A stretch of DNA of 64,000 bases from a virus (IMGVR_UViG_3300031466_000001:1-64000), one strand, 5' to 3'. Positions 1,334 to 61,686 are shown, counted from the stretch's first letter. Translations and numbers: made by a program. The notes: a model not told the origin generated them from the letters alone.

Positions 1334-1345
1334 AACATAAAAATA
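1334..1345 (+). promoter_or_regulatory. Late-type promoter AACA-N6-TA
   Basis: AACA TAAAAA TA; no long ORF downstream. Confidence 0.55.
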
Positions 1346-1581
1346 ATGGGGCAGACAAAGGACCCCAGGAGGCTATAGGTGACAACAGCCGTCGACTTTG
1401 CCCTATAGTATCAAAACTTTTGTCGTTTTCCCAAGAAATACTTGGGACAACGATCCCAAGTTGAGGGAATTTTATTATTAAAATTAATTAAAATAAAAAT
1501 AAAACGGTCAATCTTAGATCTATTAAAATCCCACTAGAAGAAATGGGGTTTTGATAGATTTGAGATTGACCGTTTTTTATT
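1345..1581 (+). ncRNA. Putative late structured RNA with a 9-codon ORF and a long 3-prime hairpin
   Basis: GC-richer than the flanks; helices 1346-1355/1397-1406, 1373-1379/1402-1408 and 1422-1435/1441-1454; 32-bp stem 1501-1532/1545-1576 whose four non-Watson-Crick pairs are all G.U on the + strand. Confidence 0.55.
1379..1408 (+). CDS. Micro-ORF MTTAVDFAL (9 aa)
   Basis: AGGAGG at 1367-1372 and GTG at 1379, 34 nt after the late promoter, matching the spacing of other late genes. Confidence 0.4.
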   Translation: MTTAVDFAL

Positions 1582-1588
1582 TGTGTTT

Positions 1589-1873
1589 TTAGCAGAAATT
1601 TTCATAGTCTATAATTTCTTTAATTAGATTATCTCTTGAGAATATTTGTTCATATAGCGAATTATCCATTATATTTTCCAATGTAGGTATAATGTGGTTG
1701 ATATTTAATATAACAGGAGAACGATATATTCCTTCTCTTAATAAATTATGATCAAATAATTTATGTAGTTTACTAACGAATTCTTCTTTATTTTCTTCTT
1801 TTTCATAAATTGCATATCTACACACATCTTTATACCTGACAGCAGCACCAATAACAAACCTTTTTTTGATCAT
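1589..1873 (-). CDS. Hypothetical protein
   Basis: 94-aa ORF with phage-like composition. Confidence 0.65.
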   Translation of the reverse strand: MIKKRFVIGAAVRYKDVCRYAIYEKEENKEEFVSKLHKLFDHNLLREGIYRSPVILNINHIIPTLENIMDNSLYEQIFSRDNLIKEIIDYENFC

Positions 1874-1973
1874 CTTTTCCCTATATACTATAGACTCAGA
1901 AAATAATTTTAATTTATTTGGACTAGGTACATTTAATAATTCTTCGAGAAAACGTATATATAATTAAACAATT

Positions 1974-2456
1974 TTATATTCCTATACGAATTTTGTTAAT
2001 GATATCTGACAAGTATTCTCCAGGTCCAAGAATTATATGATTAATAAATCTCCCGTCACTCATTAATCCTCTGATAAAAACATCCCAATTTTCATTTAGA
2101 AGTTTGATGAACTTTTCATCACTACCCCTTACACGAAATCTTTCAAGATATTCATCTTTGAGTTCGATTAGCGGGTAGACGAGATATGGTTGAAAACCTT
2201 CTTTGAAAAGAGAATCCAGAACTTCTTTATGCGTTGATACTAGAATGATGTCGGCATTATGTAAATTTGAGGAGATGTGATTAATATAGTTTGCTGGGAA
2301 CTCAGGATTTCGAACTCCCGGAGAAATCCAACTAAATTTACTGCTATCAGAATCCATAATTTTAAGTCCCAAAGATTTCTGGTTCTTAGTCAGAGTGGAT
2401 TTACCTACTCCCGGAAAACCACAGATAATTTTTGCCAGTTCTTTCATTTTTATCAT
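1974..2456 (-). CDS. P-loop NTPase / nucleotide-kinase-like protein
   Basis: N-terminal Walker A IICGFPGVGKS followed by DSDSS. Confidence 0.75.
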   Translation of the reverse strand: MIKMKELAKIICGFPGVGKSTLTKNQKSLGLKIMDSDSSKFSWISPGVRNPEFPANYINHISSNLHNADIILVSTHKEVLDSLFKEGFQPYLVYPLIELKDEYLERFRVRGSDEKFIKLLNENWDVFIRGLMSDGRFINHIILGPGEYLSDIINKIRIGI

Positions 2457-2557
2457 ACTCCGTTTAGATGATAAATTAAATAAATGTAATTTATATAATC
2501 ATTTTTAAAATGAATGATTCGGTATAATTATATAAACAAAGGGTTAAAAATAAGGGG

Positions 2558-3067
2558 GTGGACATATTGGCTTCTTCGTTCAGTCCCACAAAACCATCGT
2601 TTTATATTTTTATTAAAGGGATGCCTGAGATCATTGGGAGGGAATTCCCTAATTTTTCCAATACTATGACGAAAATGATCGAAGCCCTTACTTTTAACGT
2701 GGAATTATTTAAAAAAGATAAAGATGAGACCGAACTATTGATTACAATTTTTGAACTTGAGGGGGAACCCGTTGCTAATTTATTTAACCTTCTTCGGTAT
2801 TTATTCATTATTTCAAACGGAGAAGAAAATTATTTTAGGGATACTATTGAGGAAAAATTTGGTATAGATATGTATTTAGTTAAAACTGTAGATGGAAAAA
2901 TAGAGGATGCTTGCAAATTAAATGGTCTGATTGTTAAATCAATTGATGATGAAGAAATTGAACATTCTGGAATGGCTGGGGTTGTATGTCGTAAAGTTAA
3001 AATGATAACAAGGCATAAGCATAATCTCACCGAAGAAGAATTCGATGAAATAAAAAAATTGATGTGA
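2558..3067 (+). CDS. Hypothetical protein
   Basis: 169-aa ORF with RBS. Confidence 0.75.
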   Translation: MDILASSFSPTKPSFYIFIKGMPEIIGREFPNFSNTMTKMIEALTFNVELFKKDKDETELLITIFELEGEPVANLFNLLRYLFIISNGEENYFRDTIEEKFGIDMYLVKTVDGKIEDACKLNGLIVKSIDDEEIEHSGMAGVVCRKVKMITRHKHNLTEEEFDEIKKLM

Positions 3068-3121
3068 ATCTATGAATTGAAAATCAATATTTTGGCTTTA
3101 CTTTTAATATTTCCGATCACC

Positions 3122-3133
3122 AACAATGTGGTA
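3122..3133 (+). promoter_or_regulatory. Late-type promoter AACA-N6-TA
   Basis: AACA ATGTGG TA, 29 nt before the RNAP beta start. Confidence 0.7.
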
Positions 3134-3161
3134 AGTATACCATATTTGTGAGGTGATCGGA

Positions 3162-6100
3162 ATGATTTTTGTGGATTCTACACCACATCTTAGAGTTTAT
3201 AGACAAAGAGTAATTTTTCCGGTAGATCCTAAAATGCCGAGTAAGGGAAGTATGGCATTTATTATCAATAATGATATTGAGTCCTCTATTGCACTGATTA
3301 ATAGTAATAGAATTTCCCATAATAATCGTTTCCATATATATTTCATGGATAATATCTATGAGGGCAGATTCTTTGGTCGTTATTTTAGGGAAAATAAAAC
3401 CAAAGAACGCTTTGATCTATATGAAAAAGTCCAAGCTAAAGCTGGTAACATTATTTGTCAAAATAGCTTTGTCTCTATCGGTGGTAGAAACTTCTTTTTT
3501 GATCTTATTATGATCCATGAGATTTTCTTTAAAATTGCCGCAAAGAAAGTTGTTCCATATCGTATTAAATCAGAGCAATATATTGATTTTCTTAAAAATA
3601 TTTTTAACGATCAGAGATTCAATCAATACAGTAAAAAAATCATTCTTATTGATGTCAATTCCTGGGTTAAAAATATAAAGAAAGAAATTAAAGGGCGTAA
3701 ATTTTTTGACAATCCAATCTTCTTGTTATATTTTGCAATGACGAAAAACTTTAATAAATTCAAAGAGCTTGGAGATATGAATATTATCTTCTATTCGAAC
3801 GATATCTCCCTTAGATTGAATCCTTCCCTTGCGGATAAAATGTCTTATTCTCTTTTCCGCAATGAAATCTCGAAATTAACTGGTAAAATCACCCTCCCTG
3901 ATGAAAATACGATTGATAAAGAGCTCCAAAAAGATGAAGTCTTTGATGAAGTTATCAAAAACTTTTCTCAACATTACAGATTTACTGGCGATGATGAAGA
4001 ATCGGATAGTGAATTTGAAGAAAAAGTAAGAGATCGCCTCGATGAAATGACCGAAGAAAATAAAGAGCTCGGAAGTCTTGAAGGGAAAGAACTTGAAGAG
4101 CGTTTAACCAATGAACTTTTAGGCGACCAGAAAATTCTCAAAGATTTGAATGAAATTATCACTCAAAATCGTGTAGGTAAAAATATCGCATCTACCAAAC
4201 GAGATGAAGTACTCAGGGAGAAACAAAAAGAGCTCAAATTAGAAAATCAAACTCTCGAAGATCTGCAAAAAATGCTCGATAGATCTGCTACTCTTGAGAG
4301 CTATTCTGTTGAAGATAAAGTAAAAACGACAAATAAAAATGTTACTAAAATCAGATACCCTAATTTTGAAAAATCTTATAATGAAAAACTTTTTAGGCAG
4401 GATATGCTTAATATTCTCTTGTCGTTAAATGATAAATCTATTCCTATCTATATTAGAGATATTAAAGTGGAAGATACATCAGATGAGCTTAACTATAGAG
4501 ACACATATACGGTTCAGCTTGAAGATGCTAACCGTGTTCGACATACATTAAAATTTGACATGCCTAAATTCATTGACGATAAATTCATGTATATTAATGG
4601 CAACAAAAAGCTGATTATCAAGCAGCTTCTTATGAAACCTATCACTAAAACCGGACCTGATGAGGTTCAGATCGTATCTAACTATAATAAGATCTTCATT
4701 CGTAGATACGGACAAAAGACATCTTCTAAATTGGAGAAGTTTAAAAAGGCTATTTCCAAGACAAAAACTTCAGCTAACATTGTAGTTAAAAATGGCAATA
4801 ACCTTAAAGCAAATAGTAAATATCTCACGACCATTGAATATGACGAATTGGCTAAAGATTATACCAGCATTAGAATCAAAAAAACGGAATTTCTGTTCAA
4901 TCAGGATGAAGTTCGAAAAATTCTTGAAGAGAAAAAGATTAAAATTAATGACAATGAGTTGTGCATAGGTTTCATTGATAATAAAACACCGATTATCGTT
5001 AACCTTGATACGCAATTAATCGGTGATATGGATATCATTGATTTTATCCTTTCTATCGAAGCAGGTAAACCTATCAGGGACGTTTATGAAGGGGAAACAA
5101 GCGGTAAGAAATTTGTTTATTCTCGTGCTACTATAATGGCTAAGCAGGTTCCGGTTATTCTTCTTCTCGGTTATCTTGAAGGTCTTTCAACTATCCTGCG
5201 TAAAGCAGAAATTAAACACTATTTCACAGATAAACGTCCTCGTGACCTCACCGATAACCAAGGTGTAGTCCAATTTTCGGATGGTTTTCTGGTTTATGAA
5301 AAGTATCCGTTTGAAAATTCCCTTCTTATGAATGCATTTGCAGATATTCCTACAAAGGGATTCTCATATGCAGATTTTGATAGTAAAGAAGTTTACCTCG
5401 ACATTTTCGATACTATGTTTGGGACCAGAATTATAGGTAATGCATTCGATAACTTCTATGAATTGATGATCGATCCGATTACCAAGGAAGTTCTGGAAGA
5501 TCTCAATCTTCCCACTGATTTCGTCAATGTTGTTTTATATGCAAACTCATTGCTTGCCGACAACTCATATCTTAAAGAAAACAATATGAGTCTTTATCGC
5601 ATAAGATCTAATGAGCTTGTTAATGCATATCTCTATAAGGCAATTGCAACAGCTTATATTCAGTATAGACTGACCGCAAATAATAATAATCCTGTTAAAA
5701 TGTCAGTACCAAGAGATGTTGTAATAAAACAGATTTTGATGGCTCAAACGGTCGAAGATTACAGCACGTTGAATCCCATTGTTGAACTTGAAAAATCTCG
5801 TGCTATCACTCCTAAGGGACCCAGTGGCCTTAACCTGGAACAAGCGTACACACAGGATAAACGTTCTTATGATAGATCTATGCTTGGAATTATCGCAATG
5901 TCTACTTCACCTGACGCTAACGTAGGCGTGGTTAGACAATTGACGCTTGAACCTAGTATCAAGAGTCCGCGGGGCTATATTGAGATTGCAGGAGAAAATC
6001 TCGATCATCTTAAAGATGCAAATCTATTCTCTCCTGCGGAACTCCTCTCTCCTCTTGGCGTAACCCGCGACGACTCTAACCGTACAGCTATGGCTACAAA

Positions 6101-7331
6101 ACAATCAAAACACATTATTCCTGTAGAAAAAGCATCTCCAGTACTTATTTCCAATGGTGCTGAACAAATTATCCCGTATCATCTTTCCAACGATTTTACT
6201 GTTGTTGCGAAAGCAGATGGTGAAGTTGTTGAAGTAAATGAAGAGGCGGGATTAATTATTATAGGATATTATTCTGAAGATAAAAAAGCTGGTTCGAAGA
6301 AGACAAAAGCTGGTATTAGTTCTTATCAATCGATCGATATCAGTCCTCGCATCGTAAAGAACGGTGCGGGTGGCTTCTATCTTTCGAATAAACTTATTTG
6401 TAATCTTAAAGTTGGAGACAAATTTAAGAAAAATGACATTATTGCATCTGATGAAAAATTCTTCACTCGATCTAAAATCGATGGAACCAGATTTAATATT
6501 GGTTCCTTGCAGAAAATAGCATGCATGTCTAGTTACTCGACATATGAAGATTCTACGTTTATCACAAAGAAACTTACTGAGGATATGGCTTCCGAGATAG
6601 TAATGTGTAAAACTATTACTCTGGGTAAGAATGCAAACGTGGACTTTTTGGTCAAACCCGGAGATAATATTACTGTCGGAGACGATCTCATTAGATTTGA
6701 GATCTCTTTCGAAGATGATAGCCTTAATAAATTCCTTGAAACTGTAGGTGAAAATGTTAAAGAGGAAATCAAGTCTCTTGGTAAAACACCCATCAAATCT
6801 AAATATACTGGTGTAATTGAAGACGTTAAAGTGTACTCTACCGTAGAGCTTGATGAGCTTTCTCCATCTCTGAGAAAAATTGTCAGCAATTATTATAAGC
6901 GCATTGATAGAAAGAAAAATATTATCAATAAATATGATAAATCTAATTCTGTATACAAAATGGGAGTTCTTCTCAACGAACCTACAGGTAAGATAGAAAC
7001 TAAAGATGGTAAAGTTAAAGGTAATGAAGTTGGAGAAGGTGTTCTCATTGAAATTTATATCAAATACCGTGACGTAATGGGTATTGGTGACAAACTTGCA
7101 TTCTTTACTGCATTGAAGAGTATTAACGGGGAAATTATTCCTGAAGGGTATGAACCGTTCTCGGAATATAGACCCAATGAGGAAGTATCTTCATTCGTTG
7201 CTCCTGGTGCAGTATTGGCACGTATGACACCATCTATTCTCCTGACTATGTTTGGTAATAAAGTTTTGGTTGAATTGAAACGACATTTGCAGGAAATTTA
7301 TACAGGAAAACCTTGGGAACCTACAAAATAA
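3162..7331 (+). CDS. rpoB: Phage multisubunit RNA polymerase beta subunit, large N-terminal part (virion type, phiKZ gp178-like)
   Basis: Motifs FDMPKF..FMYINGNKK, GPSGL..RSYDRSMLG..SPDANVGVV, RTAMATKQSKH, TYEDST, GIGDKL and PGAVLARM; the C-terminal beta region is absent; about 400-aa N-terminal extension; late promoter. Confidence 0.92.
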   Translation: MIFVDSTPHLRVYRQRVIFPVDPKMPSKGSMAFIINNDIESSIALINSNRISHNNRFHIYFMDNIYEGRFFGRYFRENKTKERFDLYEKVQAKAGNIICQNSFVSIGGRNFFFDLIMIHEIFFKIAAKKVVPYRIKSEQYIDFLKNIFNDQRFNQYSKKIILIDVNSWVKNIKKEIKGRKFFDNPIFLLYFAMTKNFNKFKELGDMNIIFYSNDISLRLNPSLADKMSYSLFRNEISKLTGKITLPDENTIDKELQKDEVFDEVIKNFSQHYRFTGDDEESDSEFEEKVRDRLDEMTEENKELGSLEGKELEERLTNELLGDQKILKDLNEIITQNRVGKNIASTKRDEVLREKQKELKLENQTLEDLQKMLDRSATLESYSVEDKVKTTNKNVTKIRYPNFEKSYNEKLFRQDMLNILLSLNDKSIPIYIRDIKVEDTSDELNYRDTYTVQLEDANRVRHTLKFDMPKFIDDKFMYINGNKKLIIKQLLMKPITKTGPDEVQIVSNYNKIFIRRYGQKTSSKLEKFKKAISKTKTSANIVVKNGNNLKANSKYLTTIEYDELAKDYTSIRIKKTEFLFNQDEVRKILEEKKIKINDNELCIGFIDNKTPIIVNLDTQLIGDMDIIDFILSIEAGKPIRDVYEGETSGKKFVYSRATIMAKQVPVILLLGYLEGLSTILRKAEIKHYFTDKRPRDLTDNQGVVQFSDGFLVYEKYPFENSLLMNAFADIPTKGFSYADFDSKEVYLDIFDTMFGTRIIGNAFDNFYELMIDPITKEVLEDLNLPTDFVNVVLYANSLLADNSYLKENNMSLYRIRSNELVNAYLYKAIATAYIQYRLTANNNNPVKMSVPRDVVIKQILMAQTVEDYSTLNPIVELEKSRAITPKGPSGLNLEQAYTQDKRSYDRSMLGIIAMSTSPDANVGVVRQLTLEPSIKSPRGYIEIAGENLDHLKDANLFSPAELLSPLGVTRDDSNRTAMATKQSKHIIPVEKASPVLISNGAEQIIPYHLSNDFTVVAKADGEVVEVNEEAGLIIIGYYSEDKKAGSKKTKAGISSYQSIDISPRIVKNGAGGFYLSNKLICNLKVGDKFKKNDIIASDEKFFTRSKIDGTRFNIGSLQKIACMSSYSTYEDSTFITKKLTEDMASEIVMCKTITLGKNANVDFLVKPGDNITVGDDLIRFEISFEDDSLNKFLETVGENVKEEIKSLGKTPIKSKYTGVIEDVKVYSTVELDELSPSLRKIVSNYYKRIDRKKNIINKYDKSNSVYKMGVLLNEPTGKIETKDGKVKGNEVGEGVLIEIYIKYRDVMGIGDKLAFFTALKSINGEIIPEGYEPFSEYRPNEEVSSFVAPGAVLARMTPSILLTMFGNKVLVELKRHLQEIYTGKPWEPTK

Positions 7332-8117: not shown

Positions 8118-8151
8118 TCTATATTATTATAAGTAATTTAACAATCAGCTA
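8118..8151 (+). promoter_or_regulatory. Tandem early-like (TCTATATTAT) and late (AACA-N6-TA, 8140-8151) promoter motifs of thyA
   Basis: Both motifs are present upstream of the RBS. Confidence 0.55.
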
Positions 8152-8177: not shown

Positions 8178-9110
8178 ATGGGTATTGTCGATATTTACTT
8201 TAATAATCTTGTCGAAAAGATCATTCAACATGGTAAATGGCAACGGCAAGAGGACGTGCGGGCAATTTGGGAAGATGGGTCTCCGGCAATAGCTAAATCT
8301 GTCATTGACGTTCAATGGAAATTTGATAATGATGAACTTCTTTATCCCACCACAAAAAAATTTTATCCAATGAGTGCTATTCGGGAAATACGATGGATTT
8401 GGCAGAAAAAGTCTAATAGGTTGGAAGAACTTAGAAAATTGAATAAAAGTGATACTAGTATATGGGATAAATGGGAATACAAAAATGGTGACTGGGCTGG
8501 AACTATTGGTCCAGCATATGGCTACGTTCTTTCTAGAAAAATTAGACGTTGGAAATTAAAAGATATTAATCAAGATCACCTCGATCCAAATTCAGATCAG
8601 GTGATCGTTAGAGAAGACGGAGAGTATTTTATCTATCTTGATCAAGTAGATCATTTGATCCAGTCATTATTGAGATCTCCCGGCTCTAGAAGAAATCTAA
8701 CGACATTATGGGTTCCTGAATATTTGGATGAAATGAAGTTAACCCCTTGTGTCTGGAGTACTCAATGGAATTTTTGGGGTGGAAAATTAAATCTTACAGT
8801 TAATATTAGATCAAATGATATATGCGTTGGGAATCCATTTAATGTTTTCCAATATCAGGTTTTACAAATGATGATTTCTAAGATAGTCAATATTCCTATG
8901 GGTACAATTACATTTAATATTGCAGACGCTCACGTCTATGATCGTCATATTGATTTGGCGAAACAGCAAATCATAGAACCTATACAAGAGGCACCAAAAC
9001 TTATTTTAAATCCAGACATTAAAAACTTCTACGAATTTGATGATAAAGATTTCATTATTATAGATAAACCTCAAAATGTTAAAAGGTATGATTACGAGGT
9101 GGCTATATGA
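8178..9110 (+). CDS. thyA: Thymidylate synthase, B. subtilis ThyA/phi3T ThyP3 class
   Basis: VRAIWEDGSPA, SRR, LTPC (catalytic Cys), RSND..GNPFNVFQY (dUMP-specifying Asn), HVYDRH, C-terminal EVAI. Confidence 0.95.
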   Translation: MGIVDIYFNNLVEKIIQHGKWQRQEDVRAIWEDGSPAIAKSVIDVQWKFDNDELLYPTTKKFYPMSAIREIRWIWQKKSNRLEELRKLNKSDTSIWDKWEYKNGDWAGTIGPAYGYVLSRKIRRWKLKDINQDHLDPNSDQVIVREDGEYFIYLDQVDHLIQSLLRSPGSRRNLTTLWVPEYLDEMKLTPCVWSTQWNFWGGKLNLTVNIRSNDICVGNPFNVFQYQVLQMMISKIVNIPMGTITFNIADAHVYDRHIDLAKQQIIEPIQEAPKLILNPDIKNFYEFDDKDFIIIDKPQNVKRYDYEVAI

Positions 9111-9971: not shown

Positions 9972-9981
9972 TATATATTAT
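9972..9981 (+). promoter_or_regulatory. Early-type promoter motif TATATATTAT
   Basis: Exact motif upstream of the Lys-rich gene. Confidence 0.6.
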
Positions 9982-11360: not shown

Positions 11361-11370
11361 TATATATTAT
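11361..11370 (+). promoter_or_regulatory. Early-type promoter motif TATATATTAT
   Basis: Exact motif; supports a start at 11408 rather than 11312. Confidence 0.6.
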
Positions 11371-12524: not shown

Positions 12525-12536
12525 AACAATACAATA
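12525..12536 (+). promoter_or_regulatory. Late-type promoter AACA-N6-TA
   Basis: AACA ATACAA TA, 24 nt before the tape-measure gene. Confidence 0.7.
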
Positions 12537-12559: not shown

Positions 12560-15500
12560 ATGGCTGATTTAAGACGTCGCAATTCCCAGACCGGCCGATT
12601 TGAGAAGAAAAGCCCGGCTGGTCTGTCGTGGTTTAAAAATGTTGCTAAATCATTGGGTTTTACAAGTGCCGAATTAATTTCACATCTTGCTCCCAGCATT
12701 CATGAATTTACTACAACTAACGTCGAATATGGCAAGGAGTTAGTTAAAGATATTAGAGAACTGCGCCCTACTGGGAGGAAAATTAAGGGCGTTTTCGATG
12801 CTAGCACTCAGATAGGAATTCTGAGGACAGCAATACAAAATGCGATTGACGACATCAAAAGCGGTAAAATATATAACATGGACCGCATTAATGAAGTAGA
12901 TGGTCAAGATGACTTCGGTGGAGATTTCGATTTTGATGTTGATTTCGGTGTAGAAGATTTTAATTTTGACGAAAAATCGAGCTCTACAGACAGTGGAAAA
13001 TCAGATGTTGTTGTTCCTGACGTTAAGGTAACGGTTAAAAATGTAACACCCCCAATTACTAAAAATAATCCTATGGTTAAGGCAGTTGAAAGACAAACAC
13101 AGGCTATTTATGAAACTGCCAAAATGACGTCTGATTTGAATGTTAAAATTGCACAAAATGAAATGATGATGAGTCATGCTCAACACGGTCGCACGTTGAG
13201 TGGACTCCAAACGATAAATGATAACATTGCGCTCCTTGTAAATTTCCACAATGAATCTATGAGTAAATATATTGGTGCATCGTTGAAATATTACGAAGAA
13301 AGCATCAATTTACTTACTCAAACAGTGGAAGAGCTTAAGAAATCAACTACTGCTCAACTTGTCAACACGTCTAATAGACCTGAAGATCCTACTCGGGATG
13401 TATTGCTTGTCCATGGTGGCCTCAATTTTAGAGGCTATATTAACATGGTTAAAGCTAACTTTAAGAAACAGCTTTCAGAGAACCCATTCCTTTCTCCTCT
13501 GAAATCGATGTTTGAAGATAAGATGACTCTTAAATATCTTGCAGCATCTCCATTGAGTTTTATTTCTACTAAAATAGTCACAACTCTCATTCCTAAATTT
13601 TTACAAGATTCGTTATCTAATTTAGATAAATCATTTTCTAACTTCTTCCCTGCTTTGTTTATGAGAATCAATAGGGAAACTCTCGGATCAGATAATGAAT
13701 TTTTGAGAATGCTTGGGGAAATCTTTGGGTTTGATGTTAAAAGTAAAACTAGCGTTGATCTCTCCAAGTACAATAAAGGACCTGTTCCTTTCGATGGATT
13801 GGTCCATAAAAGCATAACTGAAGTTATTCCCGGTTATTTACGTAAAATTCTCTCTGCATTGACAGGTAAGGAAGAGGTTGCGTTCGATTTTGAACGCGGT
13901 GTATGGAAATCTGTTTCTTCAATGAAGAAAGAGTTTGATTCAAATAGAGAGGGTATTATTCTTAACGCATTCTACGATTCTATCGAAGAACTTAAACAAA
14001 TGGCTGAAACTTTCCCGTTGGAAAGTAAAAAAGATAGAGAAGCTTTCTTAAAAGGTATTGATAAATTCTTTATTAACCTCGCCGATAAAAATACTTTGGT
14101 TAATCCCAATAAAAAGACCGATAGATACGGAATTCCTACTGATGAATTAAGAAACGTCTATGATTTCGAAGGAAATACTGAAATGCAACGCTTGTTCCGT
14201 CAAATGGTTCTCTCAATGAGTAGAACTAGCCAAATGAGAATGTTTGGTGCTCAACTCGTTGATGCCAGAAGACGGCTGCAAGATTTCATGATCGATGCTG
14301 AAGAAAGACCGTATGTTTATAACACGAATACTCTTTTCAATCAATTGGGATTCGATACTCATCTTGATAAAGAGAAAAGAGACGTAGAAGGTAATTATAT
14401 CGTCAAGAAAGGCTCTGGGATTCTCAATCCCGCAGATCGACTTGGATTCACTAGTCTCGATTATCTGCGTGATATCAAGAGAATTCTTGCTACTGGCATT
14501 AGAGTATTTGTTGCCGGTGGTGGTCTTGGTCGATCGGGTAAGCAAACGGCTGATTATAACCCTCAGGAAAAAATTCTTAAAAGTATGGATACAGAAGAAA
14601 CATCGTTTTCAATTATTGAAGATAGAAGAAATGCTGATACCGTTCGTACTTTCTCAGATAATGATCGTCGAAAATATATTGCATCCGGACAATACCCTTT
14701 ATCTAATTTCTACGATCTTTCCGATAAGTCTGACGATGAAATCAGACGCATGATTCAAAGTAGAGCTGATTATTTAAATGCAACAAAAACACCCGAGCAA
14801 GGTAATAAAGTTCTTGGATTCTTAAAAGGTATGTTGAGTCCTAAAGCACAAGATAATATCACTAGTATCAGAGAGAAAATTAATGATATTTTGCAAAAAC
14901 CCGCAGAATTGCTCAAGGGCGTTGTAGATAAAATTGATCAAACTTTATATACTTTAATTTTTGGTAAAACTGGTGATACTGAAGAACCCTCTTTCATGAG
15001 CGCTGTGATGGCGAAAATGAGAGAGACGTTTGGTAAATTTCTCAAATGGACTGATGAAAAGGTAATTAGCCCTATTCATGATCGTCTGTTTGGTAAAGAT
15101 GGTATTTTCACAAAGATAAAAGATAGCGAGTTTATGAAAAACTTTAGAAAGGGTTTCAATAGAGTAGCCGACTTCTTCTTTGGTAAGCAAACTGGCCCTG
15201 ACGGAAAACGTGAGGGTGGTATGTTTTCCGATGTGGCCAATAGTTTTGCCGATATGTGGTCGGGTGTAAAATATTATTTCACAGGTAGAGCATATACAGA
15301 TAGAGCGGGAAGACGTTTCCCCGATAACACTGAGAAAAGTGTATTTGGGGAAGTTCGATCTATGTTTAAATCGTTCAGAGATAGCGTTAAAACATACCTC
15401 TTCGGTAAAAAGGGAGAAGGTAAAGAAGATTCTGAAAAAGGCATTCTTAGTGGCGTCTTTGAAACTTTAAAACAAGGTTTTCATAATTTCAGCGAAGCTA

Positions 15501-41380: not shown

Positions 41381-41390
41381 ATAATATATA
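41381..41390 (-). promoter_or_regulatory. Early-type promoter motif TATATATTAT
   Basis: Exact motif. Confidence 0.6.
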
Positions 41391-44940: not shown

Positions 44941-44967
44941 TAAATCCCTCCTCATATTCTCTAGTAT

Positions 44968-45018
44968 AAAAAAAATAAGAAAGATATGTGGAAGTTTTAA
45001 TCCCACATATCTTTCTTA
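44968..45018 (-). terminator. Intrinsic terminator
   Basis: TAAGAAAGATATGTGG/CCACATATCTTTCTTA. Confidence 0.8.
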
Positions 45019-45665: not shown

Positions 45666-45720
45666 TATATTCTTGTTTCCAAGAATATATTTTTATATTG
45701 ATACTCTCAAATAATATATA
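45666..45720 (-). promoter_or_regulatory. Tandem early TATATATTAT and late AACA-N6-TA motifs
   Basis: ATAATATATA at 45711-45720; TA TATTCT TGTT at 45666-45677. Confidence 0.6.
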
Positions 45721-49472: not shown

Positions 49473-49484
49473 TATTTATTTGTT
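49473..49484 (-). promoter_or_regulatory. Late-type promoter AACA-N6-TA
   Basis: + strand TA TTTATT TGTT. Confidence 0.7.
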
Positions 49485-50439: not shown

Positions 50440-50489
50440 AAAATAAAGGTGTCGAGGTAAGGTACAAACCTCGACACCTTTATTTTTTT
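50438..50489. terminator. Bidirectional intrinsic terminator
   Basis: AAAAAATAAAGGTGTCGAGG/CCTCGACACCTTTATTTTTT. Confidence 0.85.
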
Positions 50490-52740
50490 AATAAGATATT
50501 TTACGAATATCATCAATCTTGTATCTAAATGGTAAAAGGACCGCAATCATATCATAATTTTCATCAAATTCCACACTATCGTCCACATAAAATTTACTGA
50601 CAGGAATTCTGCTATAGTACTTGATTTTATCCGTCAAGTCGTTATCTTTAAGGAATTTAATAAGACCATCTAAAGATAAATTAACGCCTTTTAATGAATA
50701 TCGTCTGGTAATAAAGTAGTTTATTTCTTTCAGTTCTTTTTCTTTCTCGGTCAGTCCGAAATAAACCATAGGGTTGGGATCATTTTTAAATCTAGCTGGA
50801 AGGGCCGGAATGCTCCTGAACTTTCTCAAAACTTCCTGCTCCATTTCCTTTTTTATTTCAGAATATCTATTGATGAAATTTTCTCTAACCGCTTGATCAT
50901 ATGAATTTAGTGCCTCAATCGATTTTTCGATGTATTTAACCTTTTTATCTACAAGATCTTTATTGTAGTTCTTAAGTTTACCCCTAGTTACGAAATGTAC
51001 ATCTTCGATTTCAGACAGATCATATGGTGTATATAAACTGGTATCCTTTTTCAACAAATTGGGATCTCCGGCTTTAATAATTTCGGCAACGAATTGACTA
51101 CAAAAATATTCATTTTCCCTTGAGGTTTCCTTACCTCTAGCGATATTAAATAAACCGATAAAGCTAAATTTGAGTTTGTTGGCGTTTTTCTTAAATTCTT
51201 CGAGCCTCTTTTTCATCAATCTGTATTTATCGTCATTGACAAACATAACATATAGCGAATAATTAGCATGATCTGATACGTCTTTGAAGATACCATCCCG
51301 GATATCTTCGTTAATAAAAGTCATTTTGTCATCTTTATATTTACGCCCAAAGCTATAAACATCCCTCATACTACTATCGAAACTAATACTTGCATGACTA
51401 TAAGGATCTCCGGTGAAGAATCGTATCAGTTTAGCCATATTAGTGTTGGTATATGTCAGGAGTATGAATACAGGGTGTCTCTTTTCTTTTGAGTCCATTC
51501 TTTCTAATAAAATTGTCCTATATTCTAATGCCATTTCTAAGGTTTTCTCCATGAAAATAGATTCATCGACTTTATAATTTTCTTCTACCATATTCTCTTG
51601 ATGATTGACAACTTGTGGCATCAATTCTGTATCAATAAAAATAACATGTTCTTGAGAATATGGTGATTTAGAATGTTGGAGAGCATAGGCTCTTTCACCA
51701 CGTAGAGTTGTTTCGAAACGTCTAAGAACATCTTTATTATTTTTATACTTATTCACAAATTCTTTTTGCTTTCTTTGATATTCGGAGAGAATTTCTCCGC
51801 CGTTTATAACACCCATAACAAAATCATTATTTGTATTTCTAATAAAATCATTAACAATTTCTTTTGCCGCTCTTTTTCCCTGATTAATTAACATATTCTC
51901 GTTCACAGGTTCTGCATCAGAAATAGCAGATCTACGATCGGTTAAAGTATTTTTAACAATGAAGATAGGTTTGAATTTAGGTTCAGATCCATCTGTTTTT
52001 TCATTCATTTCACTATACTGCTGTTTTAATCTATAAAGGAATTCGAAGAACGGATCATAATTTTTATTAGTTAACTTAATATAGCTGAACTGATTTTGGC
52101 TCATGATCACAGCATCTTTAAGCTGCTCTTTCTTCTTGTCAACATTTTGAATTTTATGATGTTTGTTTGGATTATCTCCACCGTCTTTGATCTCGATTTC
52201 GAGGCCAAGAGACGGAATGAAGAAATCTGGGATATAGAATTTCTTCTCTCCTTCATACTCATAATAATAAGTATGGGGTGAAGGAGACATTATGTCATCG
52301 GAGTCAAAATCCATAAATACGTCAAGAAATTTCAAAAAATCTAATTCATATGAGCCAGTATAGGGAATTTTTTTGCCATCAGACCAAGTATATTCACCGG
52401 AAATAGATCTCTTTGAAAGCATTTCTCGTTGTTTATCAGGATCGCTGAGAAGATGAACCTTACCATATTTACCAATCATACGGTTCTTAAAAATATTCCG
52501 GTATGTTTCTTTACATTTAGGATTTTTACAAAACCGATGGTATTTACCGGTTTTTTCATTCCATTCGGTAGGACGTTTGTCAATTACACATCGTCCTTCG
52601 GTTTTTCCAGTTCTTAGGGCATATTCGAATTGTGCGACAGTGAAATTTTTGGGAATTTTATCTTCATGCTCGTTGCCAATATGATCGATAAGTGATTCGT
52701 AAGAATTATATTTCTCATCACATAATTTACATTTAAACAT
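50488..52740 (-). CDS. Multidomain late protein: C2H2 zinc finger + TnsA-like PD-(D/E)xK nuclease + permuted papain-like amidase
   Basis: CKLC..HIGNEH; SYELDF..YIPDFFI..EIEIKD; YSHASISFD...YFCSQFVA (His before Cys); late promoter at 52768-52779. Confidence 0.75.
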   Translation of the reverse strand: MFKCKLCDEKYNSYESLIDHIGNEHEDKIPKNFTVAQFEYALRTGKTEGRCVIDKRPTEWNEKTGKYHRFCKNPKCKETYRNIFKNRMIGKYGKVHLLSDPDKQREMLSKRSISGEYTWSDGKKIPYTGSYELDFLKFLDVFMDFDSDDIMSPSPHTYYYEYEGEKKFYIPDFFIPSLGLEIEIKDGGDNPNKHHKIQNVDKKKEQLKDAVIMSQNQFSYIKLTNKNYDPFFEFLYRLKQQYSEMNEKTDGSEPKFKPIFIVKNTLTDRRSAISDAEPVNENMLINQGKRAAKEIVNDFIRNTNNDFVMGVINGGEILSEYQRKQKEFVNKYKNNKDVLRRFETTLRGERAYALQHSKSPYSQEHVIFIDTELMPQVVNHQENMVEENYKVDESIFMEKTLEMALEYRTILLERMDSKEKRHPVFILLTYTNTNMAKLIRFFTGDPYSHASISFDSSMRDVYSFGRKYKDDKMTFINEDIRDGIFKDVSDHANYSLYVMFVNDDKYRLMKKRLEEFKKNANKLKFSFIGLFNIARGKETSRENEYFCSQFVAEIIKAGDPNLLKKDTSLYTPYDLSEIEDVHFVTRGKLKNYNKDLVDKKVKYIEKSIEALNSYDQAVRENFINRYSEIKKEMEQEVLRKFRSIPALPARFKNDPNPMVYFGLTEKEKELKEINYFITRRYSLKGVNLSLDGLIKFLKDNDLTDKIKYYSRIPVSKFYVDDSVEFDENYDMIAVLLPFRYKIDDIRKISY

Positions 52741-52767: not shown

Positions 52768-52779
52768 TAACTAATTGTT
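52768..52779 (-). promoter_or_regulatory. Late-type promoter AACA-N6-TA
   Basis: + strand TA ACTAAT TGTT. Confidence 0.7.
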
Positions 52780-52856
52780 TCTTTGCTTAAATAGTGTATT
52801 TTTGATTATATATTGTTAAAATAACAAATAGATATATCTTTGGGTGGTGATTGTTA

Positions 52857-53432
52857 ATGAGACTTTCTACTACCGAAGCTCATACGTTATATGTGTTGAT
52901 TAAAACGGTAAAAGATTTAATAAATGAAAATGATTTTTCTACACTGAATAGGATTAATGAAAGGTATATCGAATTGATTCCTATGTGGGAATCTTTGCTA
53001 AATAAATATAATTCTAGAATTATGGACTATCTAAATATTATAGGTCATCAATTTATAGAAGATTTTGAAGACGGTTATAGAATTTATCATGATAGAGTCA
53101 TATTGGTAGATGATAATTATATGAGAGATATATCAGAATTCGTAGACGATTTCAAACAGTATTCCTTATTGATCTTAGAAGGATTTAAAGGACTAAAAAA
53201 TAAACTTGACCAATTTATTGATCAATTAAAAGAAATAAATAAATCGATGAAGGAAATCGGTGTTCAGGTAGATTTTGAAATATCTTCTATCATAGAAGGA
53301 AATTTATTTTCTAGTGGGCAAAATGGGTGGTATGATCTATACAAAATGGCTACCTTTATCTTTAGCGAAATTGAAAAAGTGGAAAAAATAACTGAAGAGT
53401 GGAAATGGTCTTATATTCAAAATAATAAATAA
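52857..53432 (+). CDS. Hypothetical protein, paralog A
   Basis: Early-like TATATATTGT at 52807; terminator at 53427-53460; similar to the next gene. Confidence 0.75.
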   Translation: MRLSTTEAHTLYVLIKTVKDLINENDFSTLNRINERYIELIPMWESLLNKYNSRIMDYLNIIGHQFIEDFEDGYRIYHDRVILVDDNYMRDISEFVDDFKQYSLLILEGFKGLKNKLDQFIDQLKEINKSMKEIGVQVDFEISSIIEGNLFSSGQNGWYDLYKMATFIFSEIEKVEKITEEWKWSYIQNNK

Positions 53433-54166: not shown

Positions 54167-54178
54167 GACATATTAATA
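54167..54178 (+). promoter_or_regulatory. Late promoter variant GACA-N6-TA
   Basis: 34 nt before the gp25-like start. Confidence 0.55.
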
Positions 54179-54211: not shown

Positions 54212-54637
54212 GTGGCTAATGGAATAGGGAGGGAAGTGCTATTCGGTCTGGATAATTTCCATAAACCCAAAATGCTCTCCCTGAAAGATAGCATCGCCCA
54301 GCAATTAATTAATCTGCTCCTTATGAGGCCGGGTAATATTCCTTCTCAGCCTAATTTGGGTATTAACATAAGCAAGTATCTTTATAGTATTCAAGATGGG
54401 TTTGATGCTGAGATAATAAAACAGCAAATATACAGCCAGTGTTCCCAACTCATGCCATATATTTCTCTTGGTGAAGTTATGATTTTTGTAACCACATATA
54501 AAGGATTAGACTTACTTTTGGTTTCTATCCCAATCGTTTTACCTAACGATCAAACAAATCTTCTCATCGGTTTTTCAAATACTCAAAATGATATAAATAT
54601 CGCATATCAATTCGAAGAAATGTCGGCCGCGGTTTAA
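54212..54637 (+). CDS. Baseplate wedge subunit, T4 gp25-like
   Basis: SIAQQLINLLLMRPGNIPSQPNLGINISKYL motif; size. Confidence 0.75.
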   Translation: MANGIGREVLFGLDNFHKPKMLSLKDSIAQQLINLLLMRPGNIPSQPNLGINISKYLYSIQDGFDAEIIKQQIYSQCSQLMPYISLGEVMIFVTTYKGLDLLLVSIPIVLPNDQTNLLIGFSNTQNDINIAYQFEEMSAAV

Positions 54638-56882: not shown

Positions 56883-57267
56883 TGTAATTACACTTTTCAA
56901 TCAGCTAACTCACGATGAGTTAGCTGATTATTCACTATTCGAAAAAGTTTTGGATTCGCACTACGAAAAATTTAAATATTTCTATCGTTTGATGGAAAAT
57001 ATTTCCCTTGAAGGAGTTAATAAGATACGCTGTTCTAATTCTGACAGTCCGGGAGCAATTGAATTTAGAATCGACTTCGAAAGTAATAAAAATCTCAGAG
57101 AATTTAATAAGGAATTTTCTAATATTGCAAAAACCTTTAAAGGTTATCCTGCAAAGTATTTTTCAGTCGATATTAAAGTCGATAAAAAATCCCTCTACAT
57201 CACTATAGAGAACAAAAACATCTGTAGTGAGGAGGATATTTATGAAGATAGATTTAATTCCAACTAA
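56875..57267 (+). CDS. Hypothetical protein
   Basis: GGAGG RBS before the ATG at 56875; overlaps the rpoC-like start. Confidence 0.7.
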   Translation: MLDVITLFNQLTHDELADYSLFEKVLDSHYEKFKYFYRLMENISLEGVNKIRCSNSDSPGAIEFRIDFESNKNLREFNKEFSNIAKTFKGYPAKYFSVDIKVDKKSLYITIENKNICSEEDIYEDRFNSN

Positions 57268-58822
57268 AGAATTTATAGTTATAAACCGCTTAAAAGAAGT
57301 ATCTGATCCCATTCTCTTTGAGAAGGGTAATATTCCAACAGCAAAGGGTTTGTTGTCTACTGAAATTTTCGGTGTATCTGTAAAAGAAAGACAAGAAAAC
57401 TGGGGTTTTATTGACCTCGGTGGTCATTTCCTTCAACCTTTCATCTACAAACTTCTCAGAAGAATGAATAGAAACTTTGAGCATATTGTTCACGGTACGA
57501 AACGCTTCAAAGTCGAAAAGGGTAATCTTGTTGTAGATGAAGAAAATGGAGACACTGGCTTAGAATTTCTCTATAAAGTATGGGATGAATTAAATTTTGA
57601 GAAAAATAACAGTATGATGCGTAATGAGCGTATCGACGTTTTGAACGCATATAAGAAAGACACAATTTTTACGACCACATGTATCGTTATTCCCGCATTT
57701 TATCGGGATGTTAATCTTCAGTCTTCCCAGGTGGGTAAGATCTCCCACCATGAGATCAACGACAAATACTCGAAACTGATTCGCAATGCATCAATTCTCA
57801 AAAACGGAAACAGTTTTGAATTTGAGCTTAATGGTGTAAGAGCAAAAATTCAAATGACCTTAGTAGAAATTTATGATCTCTTGAAATCTAGAATTGAGAA
57901 AAAGCATGGTCTTATAAAGAAATCTCTTCTCGGTAAATCAATTGACTACGGTGCTCGCTCAGTTATTTCTGCTCCTGTATTTAAAGCAGAAAGACCTGAG
58001 GACATGATGGTGGATTTCTACCATTGTGGTATTCCTCTGGCCCAATGTTGTTCCTTGTTCACTCCATTTATTGTGGCATGGGTGAAAAGGTTCTTCCAGC
58101 GGGAGATTGAGAGACTTGGTAATAGATACCCTGTGATGAAGAAAAACGGAGAAATCAAGTATGTGCATTTAAAAGATCCTGAGCTTTATTTCAACGAAGA
58201 ATATATAAAGAAACAAATCGACAAATTTATTTTCAGCTATGGGGACAGATTCGAACCCATCATGCTTCCTGTAGATGATCCTGAGTTCAAAGATGGCGTC
58301 TATATGAGTTTTGCAGGACGTTTCTTCAAACAAGGTGTACCTGAAGAAGAATCACCTCTTGTTGATCGTCCCGCAACATGGTGTGACGTATTGTTCCAAG
58401 CTGCAGTTGATGTTACATCTAATAAAATGGTATATATCACACGATATCCCGTACTCGACTATTTCGGAATGTTCCCTTCGAAAGTTACAGTACTTAGCAC
58501 GCATGATACGGTGCCTATGTATGTTGGTTCTAAACTCTATAAAAATTATCCCAATGTTGATATCAAAATGCCCAAAGATAAAGTATCTGTATATTTCGTC
58601 GATACCATAACAATGTCAAATCTTTTCCTTCATGGTCTCGGTGGGGACTACGATGGGGACCAGGTTACAGTAAAAGGTCTTTATTCGCAGGAAGCTAATA
58701 GAGAGGCTGAAGAGATAATGATGGGGAAACATCACATCTTGAATATCTACGGACAGAATATGCGTAAAACGACCAACGAAGGTATTCAGACGCTTTACAT
58801 GCTTACTAAATTTGAAAAATGA
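57242..58822 (+). CDS. rpoC: Phage RNA polymerase beta-prime subunit, N-terminal part with catalytic motif (virion type, phiKZ gp180-like)
   Basis: GLLSTEIFG, VIPAFYRD, LLGKSIDYGARSVI, ITRYP, GGDYDGDQ; ends before the bridge helix and trigger loop. Confidence 0.92.
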   Translation: MKIDLIPTKEFIVINRLKEVSDPILFEKGNIPTAKGLLSTEIFGVSVKERQENWGFIDLGGHFLQPFIYKLLRRMNRNFEHIVHGTKRFKVEKGNLVVDEENGDTGLEFLYKVWDELNFEKNNSMMRNERIDVLNAYKKDTIFTTTCIVIPAFYRDVNLQSSQVGKISHHEINDKYSKLIRNASILKNGNSFEFELNGVRAKIQMTLVEIYDLLKSRIEKKHGLIKKSLLGKSIDYGARSVISAPVFKAERPEDMMVDFYHCGIPLAQCCSLFTPFIVAWVKRFFQREIERLGNRYPVMKKNGEIKYVHLKDPELYFNEEYIKKQIDKFIFSYGDRFEPIMLPVDDPEFKDGVYMSFAGRFFKQGVPEEESPLVDRPATWCDVLFQAAVDVTSNKMVYITRYPVLDYFGMFPSKVTVLSTHDTVPMYVGSKLYKNYPNVDIKMPKDKVSVYFVDTITMSNLFLHGLGGDYDGDQVTVKGLYSQEANREAEEIMMGKHHILNIYGQNMRKTTNEGIQTLYMLTKFEK

Positions 58823-59571: not shown

Positions 59572-60036
59572 TTAGTTATTACGGATGTCTTCTTCGATGC
59601 GATTGATCCGTCGCTCGTTTTCTTCAATCTCTCGCTGACAACGCATGGACTGCATAGTGTTACCACGTTTACGGAAGAATTCTAATTCTCCACGAAGACG
59701 TTCATTTTTTGCCTTGAGTTTGTTAATTTCCCGCTTCAGCTCTTCAATATGTTGAGGTGAGAGCTTCGTTACTGTAGCAGCAAGATTTTCTACAAGGGTA
59801 GAAATCTCTTGCTCAACCTCTGCTTCCTCGACTTCAGAGCCACTATACTCGGGAATAGTCTCTACGAGTGCTTTGATTTCAGGATCATTTTCAGCACCGA
59901 TTACAACATAGTCAATATCATCGAGAAATGCATCACGGACTTCATCAGAAGCCTCGCTTGCATTTTCAAGAATAGCATCAAAGAGAAAATTTTCATTCTC
60001 TTCAGAACGCAAGGCTTTCTTCAATCCTTCAATCAA
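59572..60036 (-). CDS. Acidic prohead core/scaffold-like protein, paralog with C-terminal coiled coil
   Basis: IGAENDPEIKxLV motif shared with the neighbouring gene; late promoter at 60072-60083. Confidence 0.6.
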   Translation of the reverse strand: MIEGLKKALRSEENENFLFDAILENASEASDEVRDAFLDDIDYVVIGAENDPEIKALVETIPEYSGSEVEEAEVEQEISTLVENLAATVTKLSPQHIEELKREINKLKAKNERLRGELEFFRKRGNTMQSMRCQREIEENERRINRIEEDIRNN

Positions 60037-60071
60037 ATTACCCCAACCTCCTTTCAGGTAGACATAAAGAT

Positions 60072-60083
60072 TAAGGATTTGTT
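60072..60083 (-). promoter_or_regulatory. Late-type promoter AACA-N6-TA
   Basis: + strand TA AGGATT TGTT. Confidence 0.65.
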
Positions 60084-60112
60084 TAATTAATATACGAGAT
60101 AAATTAGTTTGA

Positions 60113-60382
60113 TTAGTTATTATCTTTTACCAATGACGTCTCAGTCAAACTTTCAGAAACAGACTTGATTTCATCTTCGATCTCTTCTTCTTCGCCCCCA
60201 TATTCAGGGAGATCATTGACAAGCGACTTAATTTCCGGATCGTTTTCAGCACCAATGGTTACAACATCCGGATCGTCCAAAAACATACTCTTAATTTGGT
60301 CTGCAGAATTTTCCAGCAGAACGTCATTAAAGAGCTCAGCCTGCCGATGTTCGTTAATAGCCTTTTTCAGACCGATAAGCAT
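60113..60382 (-). CDS. Acidic prohead core/scaffold-like protein, short paralog
   Basis: GLKKA..LLEN..FLDD..IGAENDPEIK; late promoter at 60414-60425. Confidence 0.6.
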   Translation of the reverse strand: MLIGLKKAINEHRQAELFNDVLLENSADQIKSMFLDDPDVVTIGAENDPEIKSLVNDLPEYGGEEEEIEDEIKSVSESLTETSLVKDNN

Positions 60383-60413
60383 TGCTTTATTCCACCTTTC
60401 TCCTAAATCTTTT

Positions 60414-60425
60414 TATGGTAATGTT
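60414..60425 (-). promoter_or_regulatory. Late-type promoter AACA-N6-TA
   Basis: + strand TA TGGTAA TGTT. Confidence 0.65.
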
Positions 60426-60433
60426 TCGATAAT

Positions 60434-61642
60434 TCAATTAGTTCCCATAAATTCAGCATATTTTTTCTTAATAATGAATAATACGATGGGAAGTAGTATG
60501 AAAGTTTCAAAGTTATAATCCATATAAGTATTATAGTCTCGTAATTTATCTATATCAATTGTATAAACGGAATCAATTCCTTTGTTGAAGTATTTAATGA
60601 TGAGTTCCCATACAATATTATCATCATCCACGATTTCATTCTTTGCAATTTTCGTGATTAATTCATATGGAACATAGAAATTATCCCCTCTACCTAGCAC
60701 TATATCACGAGCTCTATGCTCACGATAGACTGAGAAAATTGAGGTAGGATTATTAATATAATCTATACGATACATATATTTTTTGTTATAATCTATTTTA
60801 CCCATTTCCAATGCTTTATAAATACTATCATTATATTCAATAAGGAATCTATGGTCTTTCCGTTCAGCCGTTAGATAGCAAGTCATATAATTATTCTTCT
60901 CTCTAAAGAGTTCATTGCTGTTAATAAATTCCGATTGATATCTGTCATAAAGTAAATTATACGTGAGTTTACCTGCTTCAGCTTCATTAAATAAGAAAGC
61001 GTTATATTTTTTATTATAGAAGAAAATTTTGTATCGTTCAGCGATTAAAGTATAGACTTTATTCAATTCTATAAGACGAGAGACATCTTCTTCTTTGATG
61101 AGGCACTTTTCCGCTGTCCCAATGTTAGTAAAAATACAATTATATTTATCAGTTACTTGTTTTTCGATTTCATTTTTATCATTATCTGTATATTTTATCT
61201 TAAAACCAATTCTATAAAAATTGTTACTCTTGATAGTGTCATATGAAATAGTCGTTACTTGGAAAAGATATTGTTTACCAAGATAATCGATGATAAAAAA
61301 ATCATAAGGGAGGGGTTTAACTGTATTAGGGAGAATAATACCTTCTCCGTCATATTCACTGTCAAGACCTTGATCTTCATCTTGTAAATCAAGAATTATT
61401 TGCTCTATTCCGTAAATAGGGAAATTTGTAACCTTATTGTATCGAATAGGTGAATCGGCCCCAATAACCCTTTCTACTGATTGGAAACCACTATCGGCGG
61501 TGCTTTCGATATTGTTAACATTGTAGTATGTTGTAAACGTAGGAGTTTTATCTAGAAATCTTGAGTATTGTGAATTTAGTCTATCTTCCATCATGAAGAC
61601 ACTGTCATTTATAAACTTTCTCTCATCTAAGAGAAAAGCCAT
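60434..61642 (-). CDS. Virion structural protein (possible neck/head-closure)
   Basis: 402 aa; SPIRYNKVTNFPIYG..GIILPNTVKPLPYDFF; late promoter at 61675-61686. Confidence 0.55.
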   Translation of the reverse strand: MAFLLDERKFINDSVFMMEDRLNSQYSRFLDKTPTFTTYYNVNNIESTADSGFQSVERVIGADSPIRYNKVTNFPIYGIEQIILDLQDEDQGLDSEYDGEGIILPNTVKPLPYDFFIIDYLGKQYLFQVTTISYDTIKSNNFYRIGFKIKYTDNDKNEIEKQVTDKYNCIFTNIGTAEKCLIKEEDVSRLIELNKVYTLIAERYKIFFYNKKYNAFLFNEAEAGKLTYNLLYDRYQSEFINSNELFREKNNYMTCYLTAERKDHRFLIEYNDSIYKALEMGKIDYNKKYMYRIDYINNPTSIFSVYREHRARDIVLGRGDNFYVPYELITKIAKNEIVDDDNIVWELIIKYFNKGIDSVYTIDIDKLRDYNTYMDYNFETFILLPIVLFIIKKKYAEFMGTN

Positions 61643-61674
61643 TATAACCTCACCTCACAGATTTTACACTTAAT

Positions 61675-61686
61675 TATATACTTGTT
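61675..61686 (-). promoter_or_regulatory. Late-type promoter AACA-N6-TA
   Basis: + strand TA TATACT TGTT. Confidence 0.7.

Follow-up and report, generated by a model that had tools for sequence, protein, structure and literature searches.

The stretch of viral DNA analyzed here, IMGVR_UViG_3300031466_000001:1-64000 (64,000 nucleotides, hereafter the window), comes from a jumbo phage that is a distant relative of Bacillus phage AR9/PBS1. It carries AACA-N6-TA, the late-promoter motif of AR9, upstream of virion genes, together with intact genes for the thymidylate synthase ThyA and the dihydrofolate reductase DHFR. The window is syntenic with AR9 g205-g233, at protein identities of 24-44%, and encodes the beta and beta'-N subunits of a virion RNA polymerase (RNAP), a 3199-aa virion protein, tail and baseplate proteins, a primase, ThyA and DHFR. 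A DNA-level search found no cultured phage close to it. Two IMG/VR fragments (L003/G001 and L004) overlap its right end at 99.4% identity and add 15.5 kb, bringing the readable genome of the window phage to 79.5 kb. The phage sits in a large uncultured clade, and its homolog of the AR9 promoter-specificity subunit gp226 has >370 metagenomic relatives. Gene content across the clade was scored in nine complete IMG/VR genomes (G002, G003, G004, G006, G007, G008, G009, G010 and G011), with AR9, BpSp, LPJP1, S6, phiR1-37 and JD-Fnp1 as cultured comparison phages.

Late-promoter motifs and the genes behind them

AACA-N6-T(A/G) is the published late-promoter consensus of AR9, where the sites are mapped transcription start sites (TSSs; PMC5312081). 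The window contains the following sites:

3122-3133 (+), late motif AACAATGTGGTA ahead of the virion RNAP beta gene 3153-7331, with the predicted TSS at 3133
8140-8151 (+), late motif upstream of ThyA, with a one-mismatch early-type motif at 8118-8127
12525-12536 (+), late motif upstream of the 3199-aa virion protein gene 12560-22159
26336-26347 (-), late motif upstream of 25126-26307 (-)
30564-30575 (-), late motif upstream of the tail-tube-like SH3 protein gene 29014-30534 (-)
31044-31055 (+), late motif upstream of 31086-32594, a homolog of AR9 g214 (minor virion protein)
33662-33673 (+), late motif upstream of 33693-34832
36095-36106 (+), late motif upstream of 36134-37213
45666-45677 (-), late motif upstream of 45032-45640 (-), with DHFR directly behind and an exact early motif at 45711-45720 (-)
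49473-49484 (-), late motif upstream of 47483-49444 (-)
52768-52779 (-), late motif upstream of 50488-52740 (-)
52823-52834 (+), extra late motif upstream of 52851-53432, divergent from the 52768 site
60072-60083 (-), late motif upstream of the conserved gene 59572-60036 (-)
60414-60425 (-), late motif upstream of 60113-60382 (-)
61675-61686 (-), late motif upstream of the head-tail joining/virion protein gene 60434-61642 (-)
1334-1345 (+), exact motif without an ordinary gene behind it
2535 (+), doubtful extra motif
54167-54178 (+), GACA variant upstream of the gp25-like baseplate wedge gene 54212-54637
29060 (-), GACA variant

All 15 exact sites named in the original prediction lie exactly where it had placed them and on the same strands, and its two GACA variants correspond to 54167 (+) and 29060 (-). 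Its list was not complete: the clear site at 52823 (+) and the doubtful one at 2535 (+) had been missed. The claimed upstream placement stood, but not the claimed distance of 24-36 nt, as the motifs end 16-35 nt ahead of the start codons called here. The idea that every site precedes a gene failed at 1334. It held at 60072, since homology to relatives confirmed which way the doubtful genes at 33.7-36 kb and 59-60 kb run, the one behind that site among them.

The bare motif is not enriched across the window, with 44 sites against 56 +/- 8 in dinucleotide shuffles; the signal is carried by position and orientation, with a clearly non-random placement. Among the 57 window open reading frames (ORFs) of at least 80 aa that served as the gene set, 13-14 have a sense-strand AACA-N6-TA starting 25-55 nt before the start codon, against one in antisense. 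Other spacers are at background (N5, 0; N7, 1; N8, 1), and when each upstream region was shuffled separately, the 5000 trials averaged 1.66 and peaked at 8, where the real regions have 13. In an unbiased scan of all 4-mer-N4..8-2-mer patterns, AACA-N6-TA ranked first (13 genes, 0.6 expected), as it also did among gapped motifs in G002, G003 and AR9. The same script returned 55 sense and 3 antisense sites for the 254 genes of AR9, our positive control, and 45 versus 6 and 38 versus 3 for the complete relatives G002 and G003, respectively. If the TSS is taken to be the last A of the motif, its median distance to the start codon is 28 nt in the window and 28 nt in AR9, and the profile of tolerated single-base variants is the same in both. 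RNA contigs (not reads) from four metatranscriptome runs include three ends lying 13-17 nt inside predicted TSSs, a weak hint that we did not count. One contig begins at 31072, downstream of the 31044 site, another at 33687, downstream of the 33662 site, and high-depth contigs end at 45653, near the 45666 site; these are contig ends and not mapped TSSs.

A second motif, TATATATTAT, resembles the AR9 early (virion RNAP) consensus AAATATATATTAT-N6-G and occurs in exact form upstream of genes at eight places, including once ahead of the primase gene and once ahead of the gp226 homolog:

1270-1279 (-), exact TATATATTAT motif
9972-9981 (+), exact TATATATTAT motif
11361-11370 (+), exact TATATATTAT motif
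30607-30616 (+), exact TATATATTAT motif
41381-41390 (-), exact TATATATTAT motif
45711-45720 (-), exact TATATATTAT motif
63308-63317 (-), exact TATATATTAT motif
L003:7228-7237, exact TATATATTAT motif

Directly downstream of the motif at 30607, between divergent late promoters, RNA contigs from two metatranscriptome runs cover 30635-30963 at a depth of 23-34, well above their neighbours. This segment holds a 56-codon ORF (30741-30911), and its contig begins 12 nt inside the TSS that the 30607 motif would give, a contig end that was likewise not counted.

Thymidylate genes and the dTMP phosphatase ortholog

Three genes concern thymidine monophosphate (dTMP):

8178-9110 (+), ThyA, 310 aa, intact
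44347-45006 (-), DHFR, intact, with the domain starting near residue 23 of the ORF
L003:3715-4431, ortholog of AR9 g151, about 4.8 kb past the window end

ThyA matches PF00303 with E 9e-58 and 195.9 bits (cut-off 24.3) and TIGR03284 with 116.5 bits (cut-off 108.35). Its best PDB match is Bacillus subtilis ThyA (1B02, E 4e-67), and in that alignment the catalytic Cys and the RSND, PFN (with the Asn of the deoxyuridine monophosphate, dUMP, type), DxHxY and SRR motifs are all kept. Its scores against the profile cut-offs and its active-site motifs mark ThyA as a bona fide thymidylate synthase. DHFR matches PF00186 with E 5e-46 and 156.8 bits (cut-off 25) over profile positions 2-153 of 159, and the NCBIfam DHFR models match as well. 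The earlier claim of an intact dUMP-type ThyA and an intact DHFR is thus borne out. No promoter motif belongs to the DHFR gene itself, which is probably transcribed together with 45032-45640. Its operon has an exact early and a late motif, and ThyA a late and a near-early motif, an arrangement that matches the continuously expressed class of AR9. The position of DHFR differs between the window (44347-45006) and G002, the closest complete relative (22354-22869), and ThyA is syntenic, so the two genes moved independently.

The clade as a whole follows an either/or pattern. ThyA with DHFR is present in G002, G006 and G008, and ThyX in G003, G004, G007, G009, G010 and G011; none of the nine complete genomes has both synthases, none has neither, and DHFR occurs only alongside ThyA. 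Because DHFR is needed only by ThyA chemistry, this pattern can be understood only if dTMP is the product that counts. Tmk is encoded in 9/9. Generic dCMP deaminases stand beside ThyX/ThyA and Tmk in clade relatives, with all three clustered in G003, G004 and G006, and G008 has a dUTPase-family gene, Tmk and ThyA within 8 kb of one another. By comparison, six-frame searches with working controls found no ThyA, ThyX, DHFR or Tmk in AR9, BpSp, LPJP1, S6, JD-Fnp1 or phiR1-37. Matches to the dUTPase family, which may be dUTPase or dCTP deaminase, occur in G007, G008, G011 and G013, and a search for uracil-DNA glycosylase (UDG; PF03167) was uninformative, as no genome searched gave a match. In G003, G004, G005, G007, G010 and G014, ThyX shows two tandem ThyX-domain matches in one frame of 445-491 aa, so a single protein apparently carries two fused ThyX domains.

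A tree of the virion beta'-N subunit places the ThyA and ThyX genomes, with a long-branch Fusobacterium phage, in one group (95/93) beside the group of Firmicutes phages of the uracil (U) type (99/98). ThyX occupies the deep branches, and ThyA+DHFR genomes are scattered in the crown among ThyX genomes; because they are interspersed in this way, one synthase must have displaced the other. The basal placement of phiR1-37 is left undecided by this tree, which therefore gives no direction for a change between U and T.

The phosphatase side of dTMP metabolism offers a further line of evidence. PBS1 uses a dTMP phosphatase (Dtm) of the deoxyribonucleotidase family, and PBS1, DSS3_VP1 and phiR1-37 make deoxyuridine (dU) DNA via Dcd plus Dtm or Dtt (PMC12697855). 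AR9 g151, the presumed PBS1-type Dtm, has strong homologs in BpSp, LPJP1, S6 and phiR1-37. In the clade, including G002 and G003, a positional ortholog lies between the GroEL and DNA polymerase genes; these orthologs were found by synteny and transitive homology, as a search with the single AR9 g151 sequence missed most of them. HAD motif I reads DCDEV in 5/5 U-type phages, whereas the clade orthologs have x-Y-[ED]-[ED]-[VI] in 20/20 (I-Y-E-E-V in the window phage). With the motif replaced, the nucleophilic aspartate is gone from all 20, and since the gene has nonetheless been kept in every one of them, it probably has a new, noncatalytic role, to judge from these alignments. The window phage, in other words, keeps the positional ortholog of the presumed phosphatase without its catalytic motif. 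PF06941 (NT5C) matched none of these proteins, AR9 g151 included, and was hence uninformative. The 79.5 kb readable for the window phage yielded no close ortholog of the dCTP deaminase of the PBS1 type.

The specificity subunit and its helix 2.1bis

The original prediction had proposed a search for the AR9 gp226 homolog. Inside the window this search gave no match, and the window's 1392-aa beta subunit did not match the solved chains of the non-virion RNAP (nvRNAP), belonging instead to the virion enzyme. In AR9, gp226 adjoins the primase, whose homolog is the second-last gene of the window, and the homolog was found just outside:

L003:7291-8808, gp226 homolog, 505 aa, second ORF beyond the primase, about 457-1980 nt past the window end, on the same strand as window ORF 63346-64000 (-)

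It matches AR9 gp226 (PDB 7S01_A) nearly full length (residues 38-471, E 1.3e-19) and PHROG 25005 (E 5e-31). An AlphaFold2 (AF2) model with pLDDT 85 has 7S01_A as its best Foldseek match (E 4e-19, TM 0.51/0.55), followed by phiKZ gp68. An exact TATATATTAT stands 54 nt upstream of the gene, and AR9 g226 also has annotated early promoters.

How this protein might read thymine is best approached from AR9, in which the nvRNAP requires dU at template positions -11 and -10 (PMC5449584, PMC9209446). The earlier identification of AACA-N6-TA as the late promoter of an nvRNAP in need of template-strand dU is accordingly in line with published work (PMC5312081, PMC5449584, PMC9209446). Gene content speaks against such dU being at the disposal of the window phage. 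The -10 pocket takes shape together with beta-N and DNA. Val206 of gp226 blocks the methyl group at -10, and V206G relieves the block; discrimination at -11 arises from packing of the DNA backbone, and the N-terminal domain of gp226 also binds the non-template AACA (PMC9209446). The valine was conserved in the twelve homologs known at the time of the published AR9 nvRNAP work. In our comparison, helix 2.1bis reads D-x-V-I-W-x-[YF] in all five U-type phages, with Val206 invariant, and N-S-V-I-W-N-Q in the window phage, which keeps the Val and has D204N and Y210Q. Among 140 gp226 homologs of the clade, D204 has become N in 129 and Y210 has become Q in 118. Position 206 is occupied mainly by V (28), L (27), T (18), P (13), R (13), G (11), I (9) and K (7), with no correlation to ThyA/ThyX status. 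Across the clade sequences compared, this position is thus apparently unconstrained, and given that pattern the Val of the window phage need not be a sign of uracil selection.

The V206G mutant of AR9 gp226 provides an AR9-type holoenzyme that accepts thymine at -10 (PMC9209446). The clade differs from it in being mostly non-glycine at 206 (Gly in 11/140, Val in the window phage), and would also need a solution at -11, which the mutant did not address. Because the window phage keeps Val206, any tolerance of thymine would not follow the laboratory route, and the pocket would be altered elsewhere. On present alignments, the clade would need another way of holding the DNA, for which Y210Q and D204N are candidates, or would have to rely more on the non-template AACA.

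Thymine, uracil or modified pyrimidines

From the observed position and statistics of the motif, the gene content, the homologies and the residue patterns, we infer the TSSs, the strand read, the chemistry of the DNA and the tolerance of thymine. The reading we favor, to which we assign a probability of roughly 0.78, is that thymine DNA is read from AR9-type late promoters by the phage's own nvRNAP with a thymine-accepting specificity subunit. Because the clade makes dTMP, phosphorylates it and has disabled the dTMP phosphatase, its DNA most likely contains thymine; the clade's synthases, its Tmk and the inactivated phosphatase ortholog likewise lend support to the earlier proposal of a thymine-DNA relative that kept the same promoter. 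In the proposed scheme, the sites would be late promoters for a non-virion multisubunit RNAP whose sigma-like subunit, the gp226 homolog about 0.5 kb beyond the window end, is itself under an early-type promoter motif. The first transcribed base would be the last A of AACA-N6-TA, which leaves some 28 nt to the start codon, with late promoters driving virion genes, and late and early-type promoters together driving ThyA and the DHFR-containing operon. Made by ThyA and DHFR or by ThyX, dTMP would then be phosphorylated by Tmk and spared by the disabled phosphatase. The polymerase, with a remodelled helix 2.1bis, may read 3'-TTGT-5' on the template strand or, alternatively, lean more on the pyrimidine-free non-template AACA.

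Several points weigh against this reading. Tmk-family kinases can phosphorylate dUMP too, and the Tmk and dUTPase status of the window phage is taken from relatives, 79.5 kb of its own genome being readable. The equation of AR9 g151 with PBS1 Dtm is drawn from annotation and family. Moreover, the gp226 homolog of the window phage keeps Val, Ile and Trp at AR9 positions 206-208. By the published Cbeta clash, every residue at 206 other than glycine should shut thymine out, except where the backbone or the path of the DNA is different, and discrimination at -11 by backbone packing is not obviously relieved by a protein change.

Fully uracil-substituted DNA as in AR9 strikes us as distinctly improbable. 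On that view the promoters would operate just as they do in AR9, and ThyA, DHFR and Tmk would have some other use, for instance with Tmk as a dUMP kinase or with ThyA inactive or acting on host pools. Uracil DNA would fit the retained helix residues of the window phage, a promoter grammar identical to that of AR9, the lack of a UDG match in any clade member and the missing trimeric dUTPase family match in the closest complete relatives, G002 and G006. However, the strict alternation of ThyA+DHFR with ThyX, with DHFR only beside ThyA, fits dTMP as the needed product, and uracil DNA is also hard to square with a Dtm ortholog that lacks its nucleophile in 20/20 sequences, with a residue 206 free to be Gly, Pro or Arg, and with the lack of a thymidylate synthase in all known dU phages tested here.

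Mixed or modified pyrimidines, whether partial dU or a thymine-derived modification that leaves a base at -11/-10 still fitting the pocket, are unlikely as well. They would ease the explanation of Val206 in the window phage, and two glycosyltransferase-like ORFs (weak matches, under Pfam cut-offs) do lie 2-4 kb beyond the gp226 homolog. Known thymidine hypermodifications, though, begin with 5-hydroxymethyldeoxyuridine (5-hmdU), the product of a ThyA-like hydroxymethylase. ThyX cannot replace such an enzyme, yet ThyX and ThyA+DHFR are interchangeable in the clade; the ThyA of the window phage scores above the thymidylate synthase equivalog cut-off, and any C5 group larger than H worsens the published clash. 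That the motif instead arises by chance or from the composition of AT-rich leaders, or serves a host sigma factor, and goes unread by the phage polymerase, we consider extremely improbable. The window-wide count, which does not exceed shuffles, would be as expected by chance, but position, strand and spacer specificity would not (P <2e-4), the same pattern coincides with mapped TSSs in AR9, and the motif bears no resemblance to a sigma-A -35/-10 pair.

Two known systems frame the favored reading of thymine DNA under AR9-type promoters. With AR9/PBS1 (PMC5312081, PMC5449584, PMC9209446; PDB 7S01, 7UM0) the window phage shares the consensus, leader length and tolerance profile, and in both an early-type promoter stands ahead of the gene for a homologous sigma-like subunit. 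AR9 differs in lacking ThyA, ThyX, DHFR and Tmk and in having HAD motif I of g151 intact, where the window phage has ThyA and DHFR and a dead motif. phiKZ, with gp68 (PDB 8QUE, 7OGP), is a thymine-DNA jumbo phage with a homologous five-subunit nvRNAP, but its late promoters are TATG-type without an AACA element, and gp68, the second-best structural match of the gp226 homolog, is much more distant (TM 0.36). In the literature searched, including a 2026 jumbo-phage review, gp226-type recognition is described for dU phages alone, and the promoters described for thymine phages are of the phiKZ type; nor could we find in it any account of the clade or of AACA promoters on thymine DNA.

The AR9 nvRNAP is, to our knowledge, the only known multisubunit RNAP that reads a promoter on the template strand. 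Its uracil dependence has been taken as part of that mechanism and of the distinction between phage and host DNA. If the same consensus works on thymine DNA, uracil dependence would be an add-on and not the basis of template-strand recognition, and the question would arise of how host and phage polymerases are kept apart without a uracil mark. The clade would also supply about 140 natural variants of a uracil-selecting helix to mine for rules of U/T discrimination, and the determinants could be mapped by swapping helix 2.1bis between natural proteins. A rule of gene content suggests itself, with thymidylate synthase, Tmk and a dead Dtm predicting thymine DNA, and a live Dtm without synthesis genes predicting dU-DNA, in uncultured jumbo phages. 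More tentatively, the dead phosphatase ortholog and the replacement of ThyX by ThyA and DHFR hint at a dU-DNA ancestor. That this widespread clade of AR9-related Firmicutes jumbo phages comprises natural thymine-tolerant readers of template-strand promoters, with the AACA-N6-TA grammar kept exactly and uracil DNA either abandoned or never taken up, is possible on these gene patterns, but doubtful. If the ancestor did have dU-DNA and thymine was regained, no earlier case would be known in which a virus is inferred to have reversed a wholesale base substitution. Palindrome and restriction-site avoidance did not tell AR9 and the clade apart.

Other genes of the window and its extension complete the picture:

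57227-58822, virion RNAP beta'-N gene
63346-64000 (-), last window ORF, 257 aa when complete, between the primase gene and the gp226 homolog
12560-22159 (+), 3199-aa ORF with an M23 peptidase domain near residue 2620 and a late-promoter motif upstream
L003:1976-2656 and L003:2665-3699, adjoining ORFs beyond the window with weak glycosyltransferase-family matches, under Pfam cut-offs

The 3199-aa product is probably a virion-borne cell-wall-degrading or tape-measure-like protein. In the 750-aa protein encoded at 50488-52740 (-), the first 240 residues match the AR9 g233 endonuclease at 44% identity, and this g233-like part is fused to a crotonase/ClpP-like region (PHROG 1128).

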